Positions 6,230 through 14,374 of a stretch of DNA of 64,000 nt are shown here, in pieces; position 1 is the first letter of the stretch, and each line of letters starts with the position of its first letter. Source of the stretch: a virus (lineage: Duplodnaviria > Caudoviricetes); IMG/VR virus record IMGVR_UViG_3300017909_004107, positions 56,974 through 120,973 of that record; one strand, 5' to 3'. The translations under genes were made by a program, and so were the position numbers. The notes beneath the pieces are model-generated. The model did not search any database. It worked only from the letters and a program-made list of their open reading frames with translations, and was not told where the DNA came from.

Positions 6230-6252
6230 AAACACATAAGCAATCAATCATT

Positions 6253-7383
6253 ATGCCAAGAACAATCAACTTTGAACCACACTTTGATGCAATCACTTCT
6301 AAGTATGGTCAGGAACTAGATGCTGATATGGTCAAGGAGTATGTTGCAAACAATCCTGACGTATCCTATCAGACTGTCACTAAGTACCTAAACAAATGGA
6401 AAATATCTAGAGGTAAGTGGAATATCAAGACACCACAACAAGAGACTCAGATACCAACTGCTACATTCCAAGTACAGCAACCACAATCAACTAAACTCAC
6501 AAAGACTGAGAAAGTTGAACAGAATCTTATCCCTGCAAAGGATAACACATTCATTCCTTTTGGCAACTTCCCTGCACTCAAGAAAGTAATCGCATCTAGG
6601 GAGTTCTATCCTACATTCATCACTGGTATGAGTGGCAATGGTAAGACATTCGGTGTTGAGCAAGCATGCTCTCAGTTGAACAGAGAACTTATCAGAGTCA
6701 ACATTACAGTCGAGACTGACGAGGACGATTTGATCGGTGGTTTCAGACTTGTCAATGGTCAAACAGTATGGCACAATGGTGCTGTTGTTGAAGCGTTAGA
6801 GCGTGGTGCAATCTTATTACTTGATGAGATCGATCTAGCATCAAACAAGATACTATGCTTACAACCCATACTAGAGGGCAAAGGTCTGTTTCTCAAGAAG
6901 ATTGGCGAGTACATCAAACCTGCTAAAGGATTCAATGTCATTGCTACTGCTAACACAAAGGGTAAGGGTTCTGATGATGGTCGTTTCATAGGTACTAACA
7001 TACTCAATGAAGCGTTCCTTGAGAGATTCCCTATCACATTCGAGCAAGAGTATCCTACAGTCGTGACTGAGAAAAAGATACTTACAAGATTATGTGAAGA
7101 GATCGGCATACCACTTACAGGAGATCACAAAGGATTCATTGACTACCTATGTGACTGGAGTGATATTGTAAGACGTACATTCAAAGACGGTGGTGTTGAT
7201 GAAATCATATCCACTCGTAGACTCGTTCACATCATGAGAGCATATCAAATCTTCGGCGATAAAGTCAAAGCAATGCAAATGTGTCTCAACAGATTTGATG
7301 ACGAGACTAAAGAGTCATTCATGCAACTCTATACTAAACTAGACGAGCATATCAAGTCAGAAGAGAATGTTACCGAGTCGTAA
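6253..7383 (+). CDS. cobS: CobS-like MoxR AAA+ ATPase
   Basis: Walker A GMSGNGKT, EDDLIGG, Walker B LLLDEID, ATANTKG, EAFLERF, STRRL. Confidence 0.9.
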   Translation: MPRTINFEPHFDAITSKYGQELDADMVKEYVANNPDVSYQTVTKYLNKWKISRGKWNIKTPQQETQIPTATFQVQQPQSTKLTKTEKVEQNLIPAKDNTFIPFGNFPALKKVIASREFYPTFITGMSGNGKTFGVEQACSQLNRELIRVNITVETDEDDLIGGFRLVNGQTVWHNGAVVEALERGAILLLDEIDLASNKILCLQPILEGKGLFLKKIGEYIKPAKGFNVIATANTKGKGSDDGRFIGTNILNEAFLERFPITFEQEYPTVVTEKKILTRLCEEIGIPLTGDHKGFIDYLCDWSDIVRRTFKDGGVDEIISTRRLVHIMRAYQIFGDKVKAMQMCLNRFDDETKESFMQLYTKLDEHIKSEENVTES

Positions 7384-7390
7384 CATTCCC

Positions 7391-7419
7391 TTGACAGGGT
7401 AAACCAAACCTGTCATAAT
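7391..7419 (+). promoter_or_regulatory. sigma70-type early promoter with internal inverted repeat
   Basis: TTGACA-17-CATAAT; TGACAGG/CCTGTCA inverted repeat spans the spacer. Confidence 0.8.
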
Positions 7420-7424
7420 GAGTA

Positions 7425-7501
7425 TGTCAGTCAAGGTTTTGATTGATGACTGTTGACTGACAAACTCTTTCGAGTCCTGTCGTATGACCTAAAACTAGGC
7501 A
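7425..7501 (+). ncRNA. structured 5' leader or sRNA with a loop antisense to (AAUC)n early leaders
   Basis: 10-bp stem TGTCAGTCAA/TTGACTGACA at the predicted TSS, terminal loop TTGATTGAT; then ACTC/GAGT hairpin and possible pseudoknot GTC-CTGTCGTAT-GAC-CTAAAACT-AGGCA. Confidence 0.5.
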
Positions 7502-7519
7502 TTGAAAACTTACAACATT

Positions 7520-7741
7520 ATGATTATGCAAATCACAGGTTCTTCCGCTATCGCAAACGTAAACTTCAAAGACGCTAGTCTTGTTGGTATCACATTCACA
7601 TCACAAGATACTGAATATGATTTCCTTGCGAAGGATTCAAACCTTGTTCGTAATGAACTAAGTAATGCTATCTCTAAGGGAGACAGCGTTGGTAAGTTGA
7701 TCGCTTCATACAGAAGAGAAGGTCAACTAACAGAAGTGTAA
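7520..7741 (+). CDS. small protein with weak KTSC-domain resemblance
   Basis: SSAIANVNF...ITF...EYDF...DSVGKLI pattern; start 7520 or 7526. Confidence 0.55.
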   Translation: MIMQITGSSAIANVNFKDASLVGITFTSQDTEYDFLAKDSNLVRNELSNAISKGDSVGKLIASYRREGQLTEV

Positions 7742-7797
7742 TCTAGAATTACACAAAGACAATTGAATATTTTGATACTAGCATAATCTCGCAAAGC

Positions 7798-7823
7798 AAA
7801 CCCACTCACAAGGTGGGTTTTCT
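7798..7823 (+). terminator. intrinsic terminator
   Basis: AAACCCAC-tcacaag-GTGGGTTT followed by T-rich tail. Confidence 0.75.
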
Positions 7824-7824
7824 T

Positions 7825-7882
7825 ATGCCAATTTATATACTGGTACGAACTGGTTGTTATAGCATAACAATTATACTATAAT
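7825..7882 (+). promoter_or_regulatory. palindrome-type early promoter for the nuclease/MTase pair
   Basis: ATGCCAAT-TTATAT-ACTGGTAC, 30 nt, TATAAT 7877; TTGTTA at -35 (17-nt spacer); TTGTTAT/ATAACAA hairpin. Confidence 0.75.
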
Positions 7883-7904
7883 GAGTATATCAATCAAACA
7901 TACA

Positions 7905-8429
7905 ATGATTACAGCAAAAGACATTTTACAATTCAAGACACACAAAGTTTCTCTACAAGAAAGTAAGAGTTGTATCTACAATGGTAGTCCGTTTCAAATC
8001 TACAAACAAATGAGTAGTAAGAAGAAAGGGGCAAGGTTCGAGGGTATTGTACAAGAGTATTGCACAAACTTAGGATACAAAGTTACAAAACCAGATAACT
8101 CAGATCATGATAGAAAGATCAACAATATCAAGGTTGAGATCAAGGGTTCAATGTTATGGTCTAATCCACAGTTTTTCCGTTGGCAACAATTACGACCGCA
8201 TCAAGATTATGATGTTGTTATATTCCTTGCAATATTCCCACAACAAATAGAATTCTATGGGTGTACAAAACAAGATATAAAAGATCATCTTGAAATACAG
8301 GACGAGAAGGGCAACTGGATACACAACCAACATGGAGGACTCAAGGTCAACTCAGGCACATTCTTTTTGGATAGTGACGGTCTAACCATACCCACATGGT
8401 TCAAATCAATCAAAGAGGTATTACAATGA
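7905..8429 (+). CDS. putative PD-(D/E)XK endonuclease (restriction enzyme-like)
   Basis: KGARFE...DHDRKINNIKVEIKGS catalytic pattern; stop overlaps the MTase ATG; start reassigned to 7905, downstream of the promoter. Confidence 0.6.
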   Translation: MITAKDILQFKTHKVSLQESKSCIYNGSPFQIYKQMSSKKKGARFEGIVQEYCTNLGYKVTKPDNSDHDRKINNIKVEIKGSMLWSNPQFFRWQQLRPHQDYDVVIFLAIFPQQIEFYGCTKQDIKDHLEIQDEKGNWIHNQHGGLKVNSGTFFLDSDGLTIPTWFKSIKEVLQ

Positions 8430-9214
8430 AACTCAACACAATTACAAACTCAGACTGTTTGAAGTATCTAAAGAAACTACCAGACAACTCAGTTGATCTC
8501 GTATTGACTGACCCGCCATACTTCATAGGATTTGACGGTGGTAAGGGTTGGGATAGTCAATGGAAGAGTGACAGGGAGTACATTCAATGGTGTATAGAGT
8601 GGACTAAGGAGTGTGTCAGGGTACTCAAGGACGAGCGTATGCTCGTTGTATGGGGTACTCTCAAGACTGAAGCGTTCTTGCTATACAAACTAGCACTCAA
8701 TCGTATGGAAGGTATCAAACCACAGAATGAGATCATTTGGTCTTATAACTGGGGTGGTAGGTCTAAGGATAACTTTGCTCGTAAACATGAGTATGCTTGG
8801 TGCTATTCGACAGGTGATAAATTTTTATTCAACGGTGATGATGTAAGAATTGATCGTAAGATGAATACTAACATAAGAACTGGATTACAGCATACAAAGG
8901 GAACTATACCAACATGTGTATGGGAGAAGAACAATCACACAACCAGTAAGGACTATATCGGTTGGCATGCTACAACTAAGAACATTGATATACTGTCAAG
9001 AATAATCAAGGCATATACAAATGTCAATGATGTGGTTCTGGACTGTTTCATGGGTTCTGGAAGTACAGCAGTTGCAAGTATCAGGACTGGACGTAACTTC
9101 ATAGGGTGTGAAAGAGATAAAGAATACTACACAAAGGCAAAGAAACGTATTTGTGACAGTCAAAAAAGTGACACTAAAAACTTGTCTAAGGCAAGTCTAG
9201 CGTCTATACTATAG
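8426..9214 (+). CDS. beta-class N6-adenine/N4-cytosine DNA methyltransferase
   Basis: DCL...SVDLVLTDPPY before VLDCFMGSGST...FIGCE; AGAGG SD; ATGA overlap. Confidence 0.92.
   Translation: MKLNTITNSDCLKYLKKLPDNSVDLVLTDPPYFIGFDGGKGWDSQWKSDREYIQWCIEWTKECVRVLKDERMLVVWGTLKTEAFLLYKLALNRMEGIKPQNEIIWSYNWGGRSKDNFARKHEYAWCYSTGDKFLFNGDDVRIDRKMNTNIRTGLQHTKGTIPTCVWEKNNHTTSKDYIGWHATTKNIDILSRIIKAYTNVNDVVLDCFMGSGSTAVASIRTGRNFIGCERDKEYYTKAKKRICDSQKSDTKNLSKASLASIL
9153..9210 (+). promoter_or_regulatory. palindrome-type early promoter
   Basis: GTGACAGT-CAAAAA-AGTGACAC, 30 nt, TATACT 9205; TTGTCT-17 spacer. Confidence 0.75.
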
Positions 9215-9235
9215 ACATGTACAGGAGTTACACCT

Positions 9236-9376
9236 ATGAGACAATTCACAGTTTCAGCACTTCTTGAAGGATATAGGGTGGAAGAGACTGTAACAGCAGT
9301 TTCTATTCATCATGCTATCAGAATCATGAAGGCAAAGTATGGCAATTCTGCTAGAAACATTTACGTCCTAAACTAA
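9236..9376 (+). CDS. 46-aa early protein (not in ORF track)
   Basis: AGGAG SD; MRQFTVSALLEGYRVEETVTAV... Confidence 0.65.
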   Translation: MRQFTVSALLEGYRVEETVTAVSIHHAIRIMKAKYGNSARNIYVLN

Positions 9377-9384
9377 TCAATCAA

Positions 9385-9606
9385 ATGAACAGAACTAAAC
9401 AACAACTTCAGAGAGACATTCAATTCTGCAGAAATGTCTTAGGTCTTACTGACGAGCAAACCGATCAAATGATTATGGTCTGCGACAAATTGAAAATAGG
9501 TGCAGAGTATTTCTCAGAGGAATTCGTATTCGAGGGAGACGGTATTCAATCTATTATCAGACTCAATGACCCTGACTATCTCAAAATCACATGGAGACTA
9601 GAATGA
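9385..9606 (+). CDS. small early hypothetical protein
   Basis: ATCAATCAAATG start context. Confidence 0.7.
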   Translation: MNRTKQQLQRDIQFCRNVLGLTDEQTDQMIMVCDKLKIGAEYFSEEFVFEGDGIQSIIRLNDPDYLKITWRLE

Positions 9607-9794
9607 AACTAGACATCAACAAAGAGGAACAGCAAATCTTATTAGATGCTATGATGTTCTACTTCACATTCTACTATTACAATACAAAAGGTCATACAAC
9701 AGACAACCTCGTTGACCAGTATAGTGTATGGTATGAGAAACTCACTCGTCAAGAGACAAAATCAATTTTTGAAAAGGTATTTCATGGAACTTAG
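9603..9794 (+). CDS. small early hypothetical protein
   Basis: ATGA overlap with the previous gene. Confidence 0.6.
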   Translation: MKLDINKEEQQILLDAMMFYFTFYYYNTKGHTTDNLVDQYSVWYEKLTRQETKSIFEKVFHGT

Positions 9795-9805
9795 AAAAGA
9801 TAGCT

Positions 9806-9866
9806 AGGTCAATTCAAAGACTGACACACAATCGGTTGCTATTCTATTGTAACCGATTATTATAAT
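9806..9866 (+). promoter_or_regulatory. palindrome-type early promoter with stem-loop
   Basis: AGGTCAAT-TCAAAG-ACTGACAC; TATTAT 9858/TATAAT 9861; AATCGGTT/AACCGATT inverted repeat; (CAAT)3 leader. Confidence 0.7.
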
Positions 9867-9886
9867 ACTATAGCAATCAATCAATC

Positions 9887-10138
9887 ATGGCAATGACACC
9901 TCGACAATTCATGGAAGAAGTTTACGAGATAGCGTATGGCGATCAAGCATACTATCGTGGTTTCTTTCCAGAAGAAGTGCTAGAAACACTCAGAGAATTT
10001 TCAGATAATGCTCTCAAGGTCGAAGAGTTGAGTCTAGAACCCGAACAGTATGAAGACATGGATAGGCAACTCGAAGAGTCTTACCGCAGAGGATACATGG
10101 ACGGTCGTAAATTTGCATTACAGCAACAAGAATCATGA
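9887..10138 (+). CDS. small acidic early protein
   Basis: 83 aa, E/D-rich; (AATC)n leader. Confidence 0.7.
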   Translation: MAMTPRQFMEEVYEIAYGDQAYYRGFFPEEVLETLREFSDNALKVEELSLEPEQYEDMDRQLEESYRRGYMDGRKFALQQQES

Positions 10139-10326
10139 AACAGTACACTATTACAGCAATCAAAGAGTATGAATACACTAAGACAGTTTTCGCTGAAAAC
10201 CTCGTTGATGCACATGTCAAGGCATTTGAGAAACCAGAAGACCCAGAGGACGATTGGCAACTTATTACTGACCCTGACTATGATGACCACAACCCTTACA
10301 ACATTTCACTAATTGAGGAATCATGA
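10135..10326 (+). CDS. small acidic early protein
   Basis: ATGA-coupled, 63 aa. Confidence 0.65.
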   Translation: MKQYTITAIKEYEYTKTVFAENLVDAHVKAFEKPEDPEDDWQLITDPDYDDHNPYNISLIEES

Positions 10327-10475
10327 CTCTACCATTGAAAACAGTCACTTACACATTTGATGAACTACACGCTTTTAGCGAACACGTTACTTGGTGCATC
10401 ATGGAACAAGATCAACCAGTAGATGACAACCTACAATCGTTTATCGACAAAACTTTATACGATAATCAATTATGA
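10323..10475 (+). CDS. 50-aa early protein (not in ORF track)
   Basis: ATGA-coupled ORF MTLPLKTVTYTFDELHAF... Confidence 0.6.
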   Translation: MTLPLKTVTYTFDELHAFSEHVTWCIMEQDQPVDDNLQSFIDKTLYDNQL

Positions 10476-10642
10476 AAGTCTACACTCTACTATTGACAGA
10501 AGGCGAGATCAATTCGTTGAAAGATCGTCTTGAGTCAGACAACTACGTCAATTATGACAATGATCTCAAATCAGTAGTTGAAAAGATCGGGTATTTCTTT
10601 GAACCCGAAAACACTTACAATGACATTCCTGAGAGGTATTGA
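10472..10642 (+). CDS. 56-aa acidic early protein (not in ORF track)
   Basis: ATGA-coupled ORF MKVYTLLLTEGEINSLKD... Confidence 0.6.
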   Translation: MKVYTLLLTEGEINSLKDRLESDNYVNYDNDLKSVVEKIGYFFEPENTYNDIPERY

Positions 10643-10644
10643 AC

Positions 10645-10866
10645 ATGGACAAACTAACTAAAGAACAATTTGACACACTCAAAGAGTTATATGTTGAAAG
10701 ACTCGTTGATAATATGTCAACAAAAGACCTCGTGAATTATGTTATGACTGACTTATCAGAGTGGGTTGACGGTCTCGGATATACTGAAGCAATGAATGAA
10801 TTTGAGAACTACTGGCAAGAATACTTCACAGATACGATAAATGAGGTGCTAGAGGGTCAGATATAA
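10645..10866 (+). CDS. small acidic helical early protein
   Basis: GAGG SD-like sequence; LKELYVERLVDNMSTKDLVNYV. Confidence 0.7.
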   Translation: MDKLTKEQFDTLKELYVERLVDNMSTKDLVNYVMTDLSEWVDGLGYTEAMNEFENYWQEYFTDTINEVLEGQI

Positions 10867-10911
10867 AAGTGTCATCATATCGTTGACTTATAGTATCATA
10901 ACGTTTATTAT
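10854..10911 (+). promoter_or_regulatory. palindrome-type early promoter
   Basis: GGGTCAGA-TATAAA-AGTGTCAT, 30 nt, TATTAT 10906; TTGACT-17 spacer. Confidence 0.7.
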
Positions 10912-10932
10912 AAGAGTAATTCAATCAATCAC

Positions 10933-11235
10933 ATGAACTCAGGAACAGCAGAAAGAGATCTAAACCAAGAACTCAAAGATTTTATCGATTATGTTTTTTC
11001 GTTTTATGGAGACGTTGACCCTGTTTATCCTATGAGAAAAGTTATTGGAGACGCTCCACTCAATAAGAGTGATATTCTAGATGCTACCTATGACTACCTA
11101 TCAGCAATTTCTAAGAGAAATTCTGAGACTTACACATGGGGCGAGGGCGATAGTCTTGATCGTGAAAGAGTGAGAGATATTCTATTACAGAATTACGATT
11201 TCTACCTCGTTCATTTACAGCATGGTAACATTTGA
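10933..11235 (+). CDS. early hypothetical protein
   Basis: 100 aa; FIDYVFSFYG...GDSLDRERVRD; (AATC)n leader. Confidence 0.75.
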   Translation: MNSGTAERDLNQELKDFIDYVFSFYGDVDPVYPMRKVIGDAPLNKSDILDATYDYLSAISKRNSETYTWGEGDSLDRERVRDILLQNYDFYLVHLQHGNI

Positions 11236-11295
11236 TACCATAGCAGAAATTCGTTGAAATTGGTAGTTGACATACTCAAGACTACCATATAATAT
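11225..11295 (+). promoter_or_regulatory. sigma70 promoter in a stem-loop with an upstream GTA-N8-TAC site
   Basis: GTAACATTTGATAC 11225-11238; TTGACA 11267; TATAAT 11288/TAATAT 11290; TGGTAGT/ACTACCA inverted repeat. Confidence 0.7.
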
Positions 11296-11321
11296 AAAAG
11301 TAATCAATCAATCAAACAATC

Positions 11322-11537
11322 ATGGCAAAAACAAAACTAATCACAGTTGACGGATTCACACTAGATGAGCGTTACAGAGTCAGTTTACAATGGTGCGGTC
11401 ACGCTTATCCATTATGGGTTGCAACATTTTGTGATGATGAGATTCTAGGGTGGTATAAAACTGAAGATGAAGCGAAAACCGCATGCCTAGTTTATAGAAA
11501 ATCTCAAGTCAAGTCACTCAATTTTACTTGGGACTAA
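11322..11537 (+). CDS. small early hypothetical protein
   Basis: 71 aa; (AATC)n leader. Confidence 0.7.
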   Translation: MAKTKLITVDGFTLDERYRVSLQWCGHAYPLWVATFCDDEILGWYKTEDEAKTACLVYRKSQVKSLNFTWD

Positions 11538-11549
11538 TCAATTTCGATT

Positions 11550-11610
11550 ATGGTATCATTTGATACAACATTATGATACCATAACCATTATAATAGAAAC
11601 ATCAATCAAT
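11550..11610 (+). repeat. ~61-bp direct repeat, copy 1 (copy 2 at 12202-12262)
   Basis: ATGGTATCAwwTGATACAACATTATGATACCATAACCAyTATAATAGAAACATCAATCAAT; 3 mismatches between copies. Confidence 0.9.
11553..11594 (+). promoter_or_regulatory. NtcA-type promoter
   Basis: GTA-TCATTTGA-TAC, exactly 22 nt, TATAAT. Confidence 0.8.
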
Positions 11611-11619
11611 TCAAAAACT

Positions 11620-11787
11620 ATGATCCAATTAGGCATGTATGTAAATCACAAAATCCATGATGATCTCAACGGAAGTGAGGTTATATTATTGGATAGAGTG
11701 ACTAATACCGCAGTCATAAAAAACTGGTTCGACGAATTTGATTTTCAGACTATAGAAGTATTTTTATCAGATTTGGAAATGGTATAA
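11620..11787 (+). CDS. 55-aa early protein
   Basis: Start reassigned to the ATG downstream of the promoter and leader. Confidence 0.65.
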   Translation: MIQLGMYVNHKIHDDLNGSEVILLDRVTNTAVIKNWFDEFDFQTIEVFLSDLEMV

Positions 11788-11823
11788 TCTGATACAACAC
11801 AATAATACAATACCCACTATAAT
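11782..11823 (+). promoter_or_regulatory. NtcA-type promoter
   Basis: GTA-TAATCTGA-TAC, 22 nt, TATAAT 11818; AGAAAC(ATCA)5 leader. Confidence 0.8.
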
Positions 11824-11851
11824 AGAAACATCAATCAATCAATCAATCACT

Positions 11852-12193
11852 ATGGACGCTTATCAAAAAAGAATTCTCTACGCTATCAACAAAAGAGAAT
11901 CATGCAGTCTAAGAAATCACGTTACAGTATGGAACAGTTATCATACAGGCAACGAATTTACAAGTGCTATCAGAGTACAAAACAAGACAGTTGCAACTGT
12001 TCACTATAAACTTAGTCATGATGACCTATCTGTCAACATACATGGGGGAACATCAAAAGATTTTGATGATATGATGAAAAATGATAAATGGGAGATCGAA
12101 GAGTTATTTGTAAATGAGCAGGCAGTTCAACGTTGTTTAGGTACTCAGGCAAGAAGAGTTGTAAATTTCTTGAATCAGGCACTTTTTACCTAA
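11852..12193 (+). CDS. early hypothetical protein
   Basis: 113 aa. Confidence 0.75.
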   Translation: MDAYQKRILYAINKRESCSLRNHVTVWNSYHTGNEFTSAIRVQNKTVATVHYKLSHDDLSVNIHGGTSKDFDDMMKNDKWEIEELFVNEQAVQRCLGTQARRVVNFLNQALFT

Positions 12194-12204
12194 TTTCTAA
12201 AATG

Positions 12205-12246
12205 GTATCAAATGATACAACATTATGATACCATAACCACTATAAT
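12205..12246 (+). promoter_or_regulatory. NtcA-type promoter (within repeat copy 2)
   Basis: GTA-TCAAATGA-TAC, 22 nt, TATAAT 12241. Confidence 0.8.
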
Positions 12247-12269
12247 AGAAACATCAATCAATCATTATT

Positions 12270-12419
12270 ATGTTTGTAATTTACACCAGTCCAGTCAAAT
12301 TTACGACTGACGAAAATCACGCTCGCATTATTGCTGAAGATCACTTTCAGCAAACTCGCGAAATAGTTGCTATCGAAGAAATCGATACAACAAAAGAATT
12401 TTATACAACATCACTATAG
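12270..12419 (+). CDS. 49-aa early protein (not in ORF track)
   Basis: MFVIYTSPVKFTTDENHARIIAE... directly after the (AATC)n leader. Confidence 0.65.
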   Translation: MFVIYTSPVKFTTDENHARIIAEDHFQQTREIVAIEEIDTTKEFYTTSL

Positions 12420-12431
12420 GAGGTTTTTACA

Positions 12432-12611
12432 ATGTCAGTTTTACATCATGAGGGCATACTTGAAACTTGTTTTGAAGATGCTTATGAGTCTTTCAGAATC
12501 GAAAACAATTATACAATTTCAGAAATGGAAGATTTGTATATTGAGAATCAAAACCTTAGAATGAGACTAGAAGAAGTTGCTACACAGTTATTTGAGGATA
12601 AATGCCAGTAA
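12432..12611 (+). CDS. 59-aa acidic early protein (not in ORF track)
   Basis: AGGAGG SD; MSVLHHEGILETCFEDAYE...LFEDKCQ. Confidence 0.7.
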   Translation: MSVLHHEGILETCFEDAYESFRIENNYTISEMEDLYIENQNLRMRLEEVATQLFEDKCQ

Positions 12612-12796
12612 CTAACCAATTCTATAAATCATTCTCTCAAATCGGAATAGGGGATAAAGTCAAGTATCTCACAATAGATTATCAGGTTATCATGAGATTT
12701 GACACTAATGAATGTGTTGTATTACATAATGATCTAGGCAATATTTCAACCTATAACTGGGAAGAACTTGAAATAATTGACCTAATGAATGAGTAA
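12602..12796 (+). CDS. small early protein
   Basis: 64 aa; IGIGDKVKY SH3-like start. Confidence 0.6.
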   Translation: MPVTNQFYKSFSQIGIGDKVKYLTIDYQVIMRFDTNECVVLHNDLGNISTYNWEELEIIDLMNE

Positions 12797-12834
12797 CTCA
12801 TATTTTACTTGTTTAGAGAGTCGAAAGAAATTTA

Positions 12835-12862
12835 TTGACATTCGACTCTTATCCACTATAAT
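12835..12862 (+). promoter_or_regulatory. sigma70 promoter in a stem-loop
   Basis: TTGACA-16-TATAAT; AGAGTCGAA/TTCGACTCT flanks the -35. Confidence 0.8.
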
Positions 12863-12887
12863 GTAAGTAAATCAATCAATCACTCAA

Positions 12888-13100
12888 ATGTTCACAAAAA
12901 CAACTAAGTCTCAAGCGATCGAACAATTCAAGTATAATTGGAAGGTTTACACGCTAAGATGCAAACGTGAAGGTTTACCAGTCACAAAACTAGCAAAAGT
13001 TTTTGCATGGAATGATTATACTGAATTTCTTGCAAGTGATGGATACATTACTGAATGGCAAAGAGCAAACTGGACAAATCCCTACGAATATCGAAATTAG
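12888..13100 (+). CDS. small early protein
   Basis: 70 aa; AWNDYTEFLASDGYITEWQ...WTNP. Confidence 0.75.
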   Translation: MFTKTTKSQAIEQFKYNWKVYTLRCKREGLPVTKLAKVFAWNDYTEFLASDGYITEWQRANWTNPYEYRN

Positions 13101-13141
13101 TATCGAATGATACTAGACAAACGTCCAGAATCCACTATAAT
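13100..13141 (+). promoter_or_regulatory. NtcA-type promoter
   Basis: GTA-TCGAATGA-TAC, 22 nt, TATAAT 13136; (CAAT)5 leader. Confidence 0.8.
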
Positions 13142-13172
13142 AACAGTATAGCAATCAATCAATCAATCAATC

Positions 13173-13514
13173 ATGACAACACTAAAATCAATTCTACTCG
13201 ACGCAATCAATCAAGACTTAGAATCAAGCGATTACTCTAACAATGCTATACTCGATAATACTGACTCTAAAAACTGGTCAGACTCAGATAAATTTGAATG
13301 GTGCTTCGATCGCTACATGATCGAGGTAGGTGGTTATGAAAGTCTAGAATATTGGTTTTCAGGTTTAGCACTTAGTGGAATTCCATTTACATATTATGAG
13401 ATCGGAAAGTTAGGATTCAATACTGATACATTCTTTCAAGATTTATCTGACGAATTGCAGAGAATTACAGGATACAGCGATAGAAAAGCATATAAGAGAA
13501 AGTTGAGAGCATAA
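13173..13514 (+). CDS. acidic early protein
   Basis: 113 aa. Confidence 0.75.
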   Translation: MTTLKSILLDAINQDLESSDYSNNAILDNTDSKNWSDSDKFEWCFDRYMIEVGGYESLEYWFSGLALSGIPFTYYEIGKLGFNTDTFFQDLSDELQRITGYSDRKAYKRKLRA

Positions 13515-13524
13515 AAAAAGATAT

Positions 13525-13563
13525 AGGGAACTGGTTGACAGTTCCCTTTTTTTCCCTTATAAT
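13525..13563 (+). promoter_or_regulatory. overlapping terminator-like hairpin and perfect sigma70 promoter
   Basis: AGGGAACTG-gttga-CAGTTCCCT followed by a T-run; TTGACA(13535)-17-TATAAT(13558). Confidence 0.85.
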
Positions 13564-13591
13564 AAAGTATATCAATCAATCAATCAAAAAA

Positions 13592-14047
13592 ATGGAATTC
13601 AATCTTACTGAACTTACAAACAAGTCTTATATCTGGAGTACATTTTCAAAAGTGTCTCAAGATACATCTCTCATCATGAGAATGAATTGCACACAAAAGA
13701 GTGGTAACACAGAAACAAGAGTCAGGCAAGACGGTAGTCGTATTGTAGACGTATTTCTACATGGTAACCTCATCTGTTCATACAATCCTACAAACTACGA
13801 TAATCAGAAAGTCAAATTATTCTCAGCAGGTTACTACACAAAAACAACAAAAGAACGACTCAATGCAATTTTACACTTACATACGAATGGTAAGGTTAGA
13901 ATCGTACAAGTTAGAGGTAAGTGGATAGTCAGAGATTCAAATACTGGTGCAGAGATCAATTTCTACGACGGCATGGTAGTATTTCAAAAACCTCTAACAC
14001 TAGCAGATATTGAGGAAACAAAACAATTAGAATTTATACCAGTATAG
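13592..14047 (+). CDS. early hypothetical protein
   Basis: Start reassigned after the (ATCA)4 leader; VFLHGNLI...TTKERLNAIL. Confidence 0.75.
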   Translation: MEFNLTELTNKSYIWSTFSKVSQDTSLIMRMNCTQKSGNTETRVRQDGSRIVDVFLHGNLICSYNPTNYDNQKVKLFSAGYYTKTTKERLNAILHLHTNGKVRIVQVRGKWIVRDSNTGAEINFYDGMVVFQKPLTLADIEETKQLEFIPV

Positions 14048-14049
14048 GG

Positions 14050-14078
14050 TTGACATACTCACATATAACCCTTATAAT
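14050..14078 (+). promoter_or_regulatory. perfect sigma70 promoter in a stem-loop
   Basis: TTGACA-17-TATAAT; AGGGTT/AACCCT inverted repeat. Confidence 0.85.
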
Positions 14079-14107
14079 AAAGTATATCAATCAATCACTA
14101 ATCAATC

Positions 14108-14374
14108 ATGAATTTATTTGATGCAGTTCCAGTAGTAGTCAAAGAAAGATACGACGGTTATGTAGTAGGCGATTCTATTTCAACTAAAGACTTTCAATCA
14201 ACTATGAATGAGGTTATCGACCGTTGCGAAAACTTTACAAGAGAAACACTTGACTCACAGACATACATGCAAATTAGGAGAATGGTCAGTAATGCTATCG
14301 ACCTATTGCTACATGATAGGAGGACATTCGACAGCATGATGACTGACATACTTATAGATGATTTATGGAGTTAG
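14108..14374 (+). CDS. small acidic early protein
   Basis: 88 aa; (AATC)n leader. Confidence 0.7.
   Translation: MNLFDAVPVVVKERYDGYVVGDSISTKDFQSTMNEVIDRCENFTRETLDSQTYMQIRRMVSNAIDLLLHDRRTFDSMMTDILIDDLWS

Follow-up and report, generated by a model that had tools for sequence, protein, structure and literature searches.

A short RNA hairpin is predicted just downstream of cobS in a marine phage genome, and its loop is the exact complement of a motif that stands ahead of the start codons of many small genes nearby. Does this loop read those leaders by base pairing, as the original prediction had proposed for a trans-acting RNA, or does the hairpin serve only the mRNA that carries it? The sequence analyzed here (the window) covers 64 kb at the right-hand end of a viral record of 120,973 nt, which is ~61% complete. 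Its cobS gene, at positions 6253-7383, shares 60-75% identity with cobS of T4-like cyanomyophages; the source is therefore taken to be an uncultured marine cyanomyophage. The promoter, hairpin, leader element, small gene, terminator and early units described below all lie on the plus strand.

The locus downstream of cobS

On the 3' side of cobS, a 73-codon gene (7520-7741) is followed by ~6.5 kb of small ORFs. A blastn comparison of this region with 50,697 phage records returned no match. The record contains cobS and an upstream 751-aa 'peptidase' homolog, while homologs of gp45, gp44, gp62, RegA, and gp55 were not detected: tblastn with the S-RIM32 versions of these five proteins found none in this 61%-complete, 121-kb record, and the regA Pfam profile matched neither the record nor the controls. 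Either the gene order near cobS is unlike that of cultured cyanomyophages, or the replication module lies within the missing 39%.

An early sigma70-type promoter was found at 7391-7419. As originally predicted, it consists of TTGACA (7391-7396), a 17-nt spacer and CATAAT (7414-7419), and a TG precedes the latter to form an extended -10 box. On sequence evidence, it scores 11/12 and is the top promoter match within 7300-7950, and it is kept in 56 related loci. Its spacer contains an inverted repeat (TGACAGG, 7392-7398, and CCTGTCA, 7409-7415), as in the PeSL cassettes described below. The hairpin begins at the predicted +1 of the transcript. A terminator scan of 7300-7950 detected a single intrinsic terminator, at 7804-7824, 3' of the small gene, and none between 7462 and that gene. 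The hairpin is therefore a 5'UTR element of the small-gene mRNA, and no discrete small RNA is expected. Of the proposed trans-acting RNA, the hairpin, its covariation and a constrained loop complementing the early leader were retained, while the idea of a discrete RNA gene was not. Inspection revealed no minus-strand promoter or ORF relics beneath the hairpin, and no overlapping ORF is conserved at the leader, as indels and insertions occur there in relatives.

The hairpin itself spans 7425-7462 and is backed by fold prediction, covariation, and homology with the neighboring unit at 7877-7897. Its 10-bp stem pairs TGTCAGTCAA (7425-7434) with TTGACTGACA (7453-7462) and is extended by an inner stem of GGUU/GACU pairs (7435-7438 with 7448-7451, G7452 being bulged). 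This leaves a 9-nt loop, UUGAUUGAU (7439-7447), which is the exact complement of the leader motif AUCAAUCAA. Stem, extension and loop had all been claimed from the sequence, and all were recovered in the minimum-energy fold (-15 kcal/mol, z = -3.3 versus shuffles) and in the ensemble prediction, where the unpaired probability of the loop bases is 0.54-0.95, and at least 0.87 in seven of the nine. All coordinates of the original prediction proved correct. Its 'second hairpin/pseudoknot' did not hold up, as a weak 4-bp consensus helix alone (-2.1 kcal/mol) was found. The AUG of the small gene lies ~60 nt past the hairpin and is not sequestered in the predicted fold, and no 6-nt complement to the loop was visible by eye elsewhere within the same mRNA. 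Rfam yielded no gathering-score match in the window and nothing at E <= 1 in four relatives; its rows for 7300-7900 are at chance level.

Between the hairpin and the small gene lies a conserved leader element, AGTCCTGTCGTATGAC..AAACTAGG (7473-7502), in which no convincing structure was found. It is also present in relatives that lack the hairpin and, judging from these comparisons, is older than the hairpin. It is partly recognizable in AG-345-D19.

The small early gene encodes a protein of 73 aa, or of 71 aa in some relatives, which start at the third codon. The weak KTSC resemblance noted originally holds at the level of the fold and not at that of the profile. Pfam, including KTSC (PF13619), gave no hit for this protein, 12 homologs, or 10 distant relatives, and no sequence match to solved structures was found. 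The AlphaFold model (pLDDT 83) has four main strands, two helices, and a short C-terminal strand, and its top PDB matches are the KTSC proteins 7x8c and 4rgi (TM 0.51-0.71, probability 0.80-0.96, E ~0.3). In BFVD, the best matches are uncharacterized proteins of cultured cyanomyophages, among them S-RIM32, ACG-2014e/h, and MED4-213 (TM 0.84-0.89), followed by KTSC-domain phage proteins. The structure matches gave no DNA-binding fold. Nucleic-acid binding has only been proposed for the KTSC family, and adjacency is the sole link of this protein to the hairpin.

Complementarity between the loop and the early leaders

In the window, ATCAATCAA, which is complementary to the loop, occurs 24 times, compared with 2.6 +/- 1.7 expected copies (~9-fold enrichment); in the 121-kb record, 23 copies are forward and 4 are reverse. 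Within 7889-14107, the forward copies are located 6-7 nt past TATAAT-like boxes and 0-13 nt ahead of an ATG, so that the motif makes up the entire G-free 5'UTR. From these counts and this placement, the (AUCA)n 5'UTRs of 12-13 early units (7889-14107) are candidate targets, with motif starts at 7889, 8405, 9376, 9876, 10921, 11303, 11600, 11829, 12252, 12871, 13154, 13571, and 14086. The early-unit leaders share one orientation and vary in repeat number between the start site and the AUG. A weaker copy of the motif is found ahead of cobS, at 6243. In the literature searched, neither (AATC)n leaders nor an anti-leader RNA had been described for cyanophages.

The contiguous matches quoted in the original prediction were reproduced, with 10 nt at 9376, 11307, 11600, 11829, and 12252 and 11 nt at 13579; those at 7889 and 8405 are of 10 nt by direct reading. 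Matches of 9 nt to the loop region were also present at 9876, 12871, 13154, and 14086. When the whole 5'UTR of the window was considered, complements of at least 8 nt were detected in the start regions of 16 of 46 ORFs, versus 2 for shuffled UTRs. In two related phages, 14 and 9 start regions were complementary, always via the loop; for the hairpin carriers overall, shuffled UTRs gave 2-3 matches against the 9-16 observed.

Predicted energies were less informative. The loop-leader duplexes are AU-rich and have duplexfold energies of -12 to -14 kcal/mol, which many chance sites equal, and an energy ranking of targets with this program did not discriminate: shuffled probes yielded equally many 'targets'. 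The net gains given by cofold range from -0.7 to -8.4 kcal/mol, versus a mean of -3.5 for shuffled targets; it should be noted that cofold must open the stem and cannot model loop-only pairing. Long (AAUC)n leaders were predicted by cofold to be able to invade both antisense copies of the hairpin. The case for a putative anti-leader RNA rests on exact seeds, placement and conservation rather than on energy.

The early units resemble the PeSL cassettes of T4-type phages, in which a sigma70-like promoter with a stem-loop in or over its spacer stands before ORFans and ends 3' in a Shine-Dalgarno sequence (PMC2839356, PMC4122927). The likeness lies in the strong promoter and the spacer stem-loop, repeated before small ORFans in a hyperplastic region. 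The units described here differ in that they end in (AATC)n and not in a Shine-Dalgarno sequence, and one cassette, to which the promoter and 5' arm of the hairpin belong, gained inverted leader copies. In the early region (7850-14110), a terminator-type stem-loop overlaps the -35 box or the spacer and is followed by TATAAT; examples are GGGAACTG..CAGTTCCC-T7 at ~13535 and GGTATCA..TGATACC at ~11560, 11790, and 12215. The cassettes end in G-free (AATC)2-5, which forms the whole 5'UTR, without a Shine-Dalgarno sequence. For the mechanically called ORFs at 7881 and 8396, the first ATG falls within the -10 box or leader or ahead of it, and the true starts are likely ATG 7906 and ATG 8426, 3' of the AATC leader; ATG 8426 also has an AGAGG Shine-Dalgarno-like box.

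Origin and variation of the hairpin

The segment from the -10 box through the 5' arm of the stem (ATAATGAGTAT-GTCAGTCAA) is homologous to ATAATGAGTAT-ATCAATCAA of the next unit, and the 5' arm (7425-7434) is therefore read as a copy of the AUCAAUCAA leader with G substitutions. The remainder of the hairpin (7439-7461) corresponds to a longer (NTCA)n leader in antisense. Either of the two antisense copies is a possible partner for the 5' arm: pairing with the proximal one (the loop) involves two G-U pairs and has an energy of -8.4 kcal/mol, while pairing with the distal one is perfect, at -15 kcal/mol. As the G-C pairs favor the distal pairing, the canonical anti-leader stays exposed. The other three copies of TTGATTGAT in the record have neither an early-type promoter nor a hairpin-loop placement.

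We compared this locus with 60-odd loci gathered from ~50 close metagenomic clusters of the small protein and by means of a cobS-end pattern. A 14-nt block covering the loop, GGTTTTGATTGATG (7435-7448), is unchanged in all 56 loci with the promoter, which represent 25 distinct promoter-leader sequences. None of its 14 sites varies, whereas the remainder of the leader has 29 variable sites out of 57 (Fisher p = 2e-4); the CDS and the promoter of the same loci have 93 of 222 and 11 of 36 variable sites, respectively. The stem does change: pair 5-36 is GC in six sequences, AU in four and GU in one, and pair 9-32 is AU or GU. The structure is 93.5% paired; sliding the partners lowers this to 15-47%. 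Where A has become G in the 5' arm, the 3' arm has the matching C, and the loop is never so changed. In locus L014, the inner stem is lost and the loop text is retained. Stem covariation combined with loop conservation, as anticipated in the original prediction, was thus observed (A-U, G-U, and G-C exchanges around an invariant loop block), although the covarying pairs number just one or two. A sequence-specific constraint on the loop is supported by this comparison. All hairpin-bearing phages in the comparison also have AATC leaders, so that the expectation that the loop tracks the leader of each phage was borne out in every hairpin carrier; it was not outside the clade, where the relatives show no complementary element.

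This clade is narrow, its members having a nearly identical cobS end and promoter. Among the fetched loci, five leader architectures between the promoter and the small gene were distinguished. Type A has the hairpin as in the window, and type A+ has the hairpin plus an inserted stem-loop of ~80 nt. Type B lacks the hairpin and has the conserved element, AGTCCTGTC.TATGAC..AAACT.G, directly after the promoter. Type C has a different 5' hairpin, and the distant forms L001 and L012 have long unrelated leaders; type C, L012, and L001 all carry a different hairpin at the 5' end of the small-gene mRNA. Since the leaders of relatives differ in this way, the hairpin is viewed as a clade-specific module inserted upstream of the older conserved leader element. 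No complementary element was found in types B and C or in L012 and L001. In type B phages, weak AATC-like cobS leaders persist without a hairpin.

Other leader elements were seen in these relatives. In L012, a distant relative on a 193-kb contig, two other shared leader motifs, GTTCAAACAAAGGTTCA and CCTTATCTAACATC, precede small early genes (9500-13200), and the complement of its shared leaders (CAAACAAAGGTTCA; CCTTATCTAACATC) is absent from its small-gene leader. Lineage-specific 'private' leaders may be general in these phages. The type A+ insert (L035, 2988-3066; also L025, L034, L036, L039, and L053) is a ~80-nt stem-loop, GTGGGGTCAG...CTGACCCCAC, with a second allele, GTGGGATGAC...GCATCCCAC, and it separates the hairpin from the conserved leader element. 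No Rfam family matches it, and its occurrence on differing promoter backgrounds suggests a mobile or recombining module.

The stretch, in whole or in part, was present in 14 metatranscriptomic runs. Contigs of four runs, drawn from three studies, cover the region; contigs reveal neither transcript ends nor levels. In contigs of two runs from one study (X1 and X3), 7421-7473 is replaced by 19 nt, TTATTGATTGACAACATGT. This variant keeps the antisense ATTGATTGA right behind the promoter and has no stem; it was not found in IMG/VR or in the fetched loci. A contig of run X6 joins 7387 straight to 7474, like the hairpin-less type. The run X5 contig covering 7228-7773 has a depth of 136, versus 4-6 in adjacent contigs, a hint that the small-gene transcript is abundant.

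Possible roles of the loop

The frozen loop, the stem changes that strengthen distal pairing and the stem-less variant that keeps the antisense motif are difficult to attribute to chance or to a purely structural cap; they fit a loop that is read by base pairing, and the early leaders are the only abundant partners that the phage offers it. We tentatively favor, as a candidate with a little less than an even chance, an anti-leader RNA embedded in a 5'UTR that would pair with the early leaders. The wider proposal is held with somewhat less confidence still: that this mRNA-leader hairpin would act as the master antisense regulator of a lytic T4-like cyanophage, its invariant loop reading (AAUC)n 5'UTRs and timing the early regulon.

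In such a scheme, transcription from a strong early promoter would yield the mRNA of the small KTSC-fold gene with the hairpin at its 5' end, and the hairpin would derive from an (AAUC)n leader of the phage itself, copied in inverted orientation. The leader-like 5' arm would be locked to the distal antisense copy by G-C pairs, and the proximal copy would be left as an open 9-nt loop with two UUGA (YUNR-like) turns. This loop would then pair with the G-free, unstructured (AUCA)n 5'UTRs of ~12 other early mRNAs. Because the paired stretch would end 0-13 nt from the AUG, within the ribosome footprint, a block of 30S binding would be the most likely effect, and accumulation of the stable hairpin-capped RNA could produce a timed shut-down of early translation. 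In an alternative of opposite sign, the same pairing would protect the leaders from RNase E; during cyanophage infection, RNA duplexes mask RNase E sites (PMC3113571). Here, we infer where the transcript starts, that the pairing takes place in vivo, and how large and of which sign its effect would be. Several points count against an anti-leader role. A dozen or more mRNAs, transcribed from similar promoters, would need to be titrated by a single RNA, descent from an inverted leader copy is a trivial explanation of the complementarity, the predicted affinity is weak, the clade is narrow, and there is no separate transcript.

In the main rival reading, the hairpin would be a cis-acting 5' stem-loop only, guarding the small-gene mRNA from 5'-end-dependent decay or tuning its translation. 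In its full form, aberrant inverted recombination of PeSL-like cassettes would have produced the hairpin, the complementarity would be inherited, and a protein, perhaps the KTSC-fold product, would bind the loop; taken jointly, this is a serious contender that we nevertheless consider rather unlikely. It agrees with the location of the hairpin at the predicted +1, the homology of its 5' arm and promoter to the neighboring cassette, the other hairpins borne at the same mRNA end by type C, L012, and L001, the acceptance of inserted stem-loops at this site in type A+, and the unremarkable leader binding energies. However, a structural cap leaves unexplained why no site of the loop block varies while the stem and flanks do, and why the stem-less variant keeps the antisense motif. 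That a protein site should by coincidence exactly complement the 9-mer repeated most often in the genome has a chance of ~1e-5 per loop, unless it had been inherited and then frozen.

The roles of the two partners might also be reversed, with abundant (AAUC)n leaders pairing with the loop, invading the stem and thereby setting the stability or translation of the small-gene mRNA according to the level of early transcripts. The same complementarity and conservation would apply as for the anti-leader reading, the cofold prediction of long leaders invading both antisense copies would fit, and the stoichiometry favors many leaders acting on one RNA. The position of the AUG, ~60 nt past the hairpin and unsequestered, speaks against such control, which we regard as improbable.

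It is more improbable again that the hairpin has no function and is a recombination scar retained through the close kinship of the sampled phages. The narrow clade and the one or two covarying pairs would allow this, but the flanking leader and the synonymous-rich CDS vary at 42-51% of their sites, and the loop block never does. Least probable is a role at the DNA level, in which the 'hairpin' would be a palindromic autoregulatory site, its inverted copies (7425-7462) serving, like the AATC repeats at +1 of early promoters, as operators for a DNA-binding regulator: although every early promoter has the motif in its initially transcribed region and a perfect 10-bp inverted repeat adjoins this one, the concerted A-to-G/T-to-C arm changes, which include a G-U intermediate, fit RNA pairing better than a half-site consensus, the genomic AATC copies stayed the same while the arms changed, the leader copies have a single orientation and a variable repeat number, and no DNA-binding fold was found for the neighboring protein.

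The candidate anti-leader RNA can be compared with known loop-antisense systems. Staphylococcal RNAIII and RNAs of the RsaE/RoxS type carry C-rich loops that are antisense to the universal Shine-Dalgarno G-run and form G-C-rich pairings. They have in common with the hairpin a loop motif antisense to a shared translation-start signal and, on the anti-leader reading, many mRNA targets that would be reached by loop-initiated pairing; they differ in that the target here would be a phage-specific, G-free (AAUC)n whole 5'UTR, paired through AU-rich contacts by an mRNA leader of a lytic phage. The c4 RNA of P1/P7 and the CI RNA of P4 are immunity RNAs of temperate elements, processed to discrete molecules that act on one operon; their loops pair with short repeats on the phage's own transcripts and block ribosome binding or cause termination. 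Here too, a phage-encoded stem-loop has a loop complementary to repeats on the phage's own transcripts, but the phage is T4-like and lytic, no processing is known, and there are ~12 separate candidate units. The proposed mechanism would join these loop-antisense regulators of shared start-region motifs and phage immunity RNAs, and would not form a new category.

T4 RegA, a protein, globally shuts down ~30 early and middle mRNAs after transcription; it occupies their unstructured, A+U-rich start regions, either at the AUG or immediately 5' of it (PMC3014915). The candidate pairing would likewise abut the AUG, with ribosome occlusion as its simplest outcome, although the agent would be an RNA and the mechanism a different one. 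The cyanobacterial Yfr1 and Yfr2 are short hairpin host sRNAs with an invariant unpaired motif (PMC6778093). The present hairpin has no sequence or family relation to them or to cis-antisense RNAs (no Rfam hit), those being host RNAs or long cis-antisense transcripts.

Early shut-off in T4-like phages is known through the proteins RegA and RegB. If the anti-leader reading is true, a lytic phage would have a new route to the timing of early expression, through an RNA that recognizes a leader code private to the phage. Such an RNA would be the counterpart of T4 RegA/RegB, would derive from the leader that it controls, and would show how inverted copying of a target can create its regulator in a single step. 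One variant of the small protein is indexed in 147 blocks of the metagenome collection; the clade is thus common in ocean metagenomes, which makes the element ecologically widespread. The G-free (AAUC)n whole-leader design also bears on Shine-Dalgarno-independent translation in cyanobacteria.
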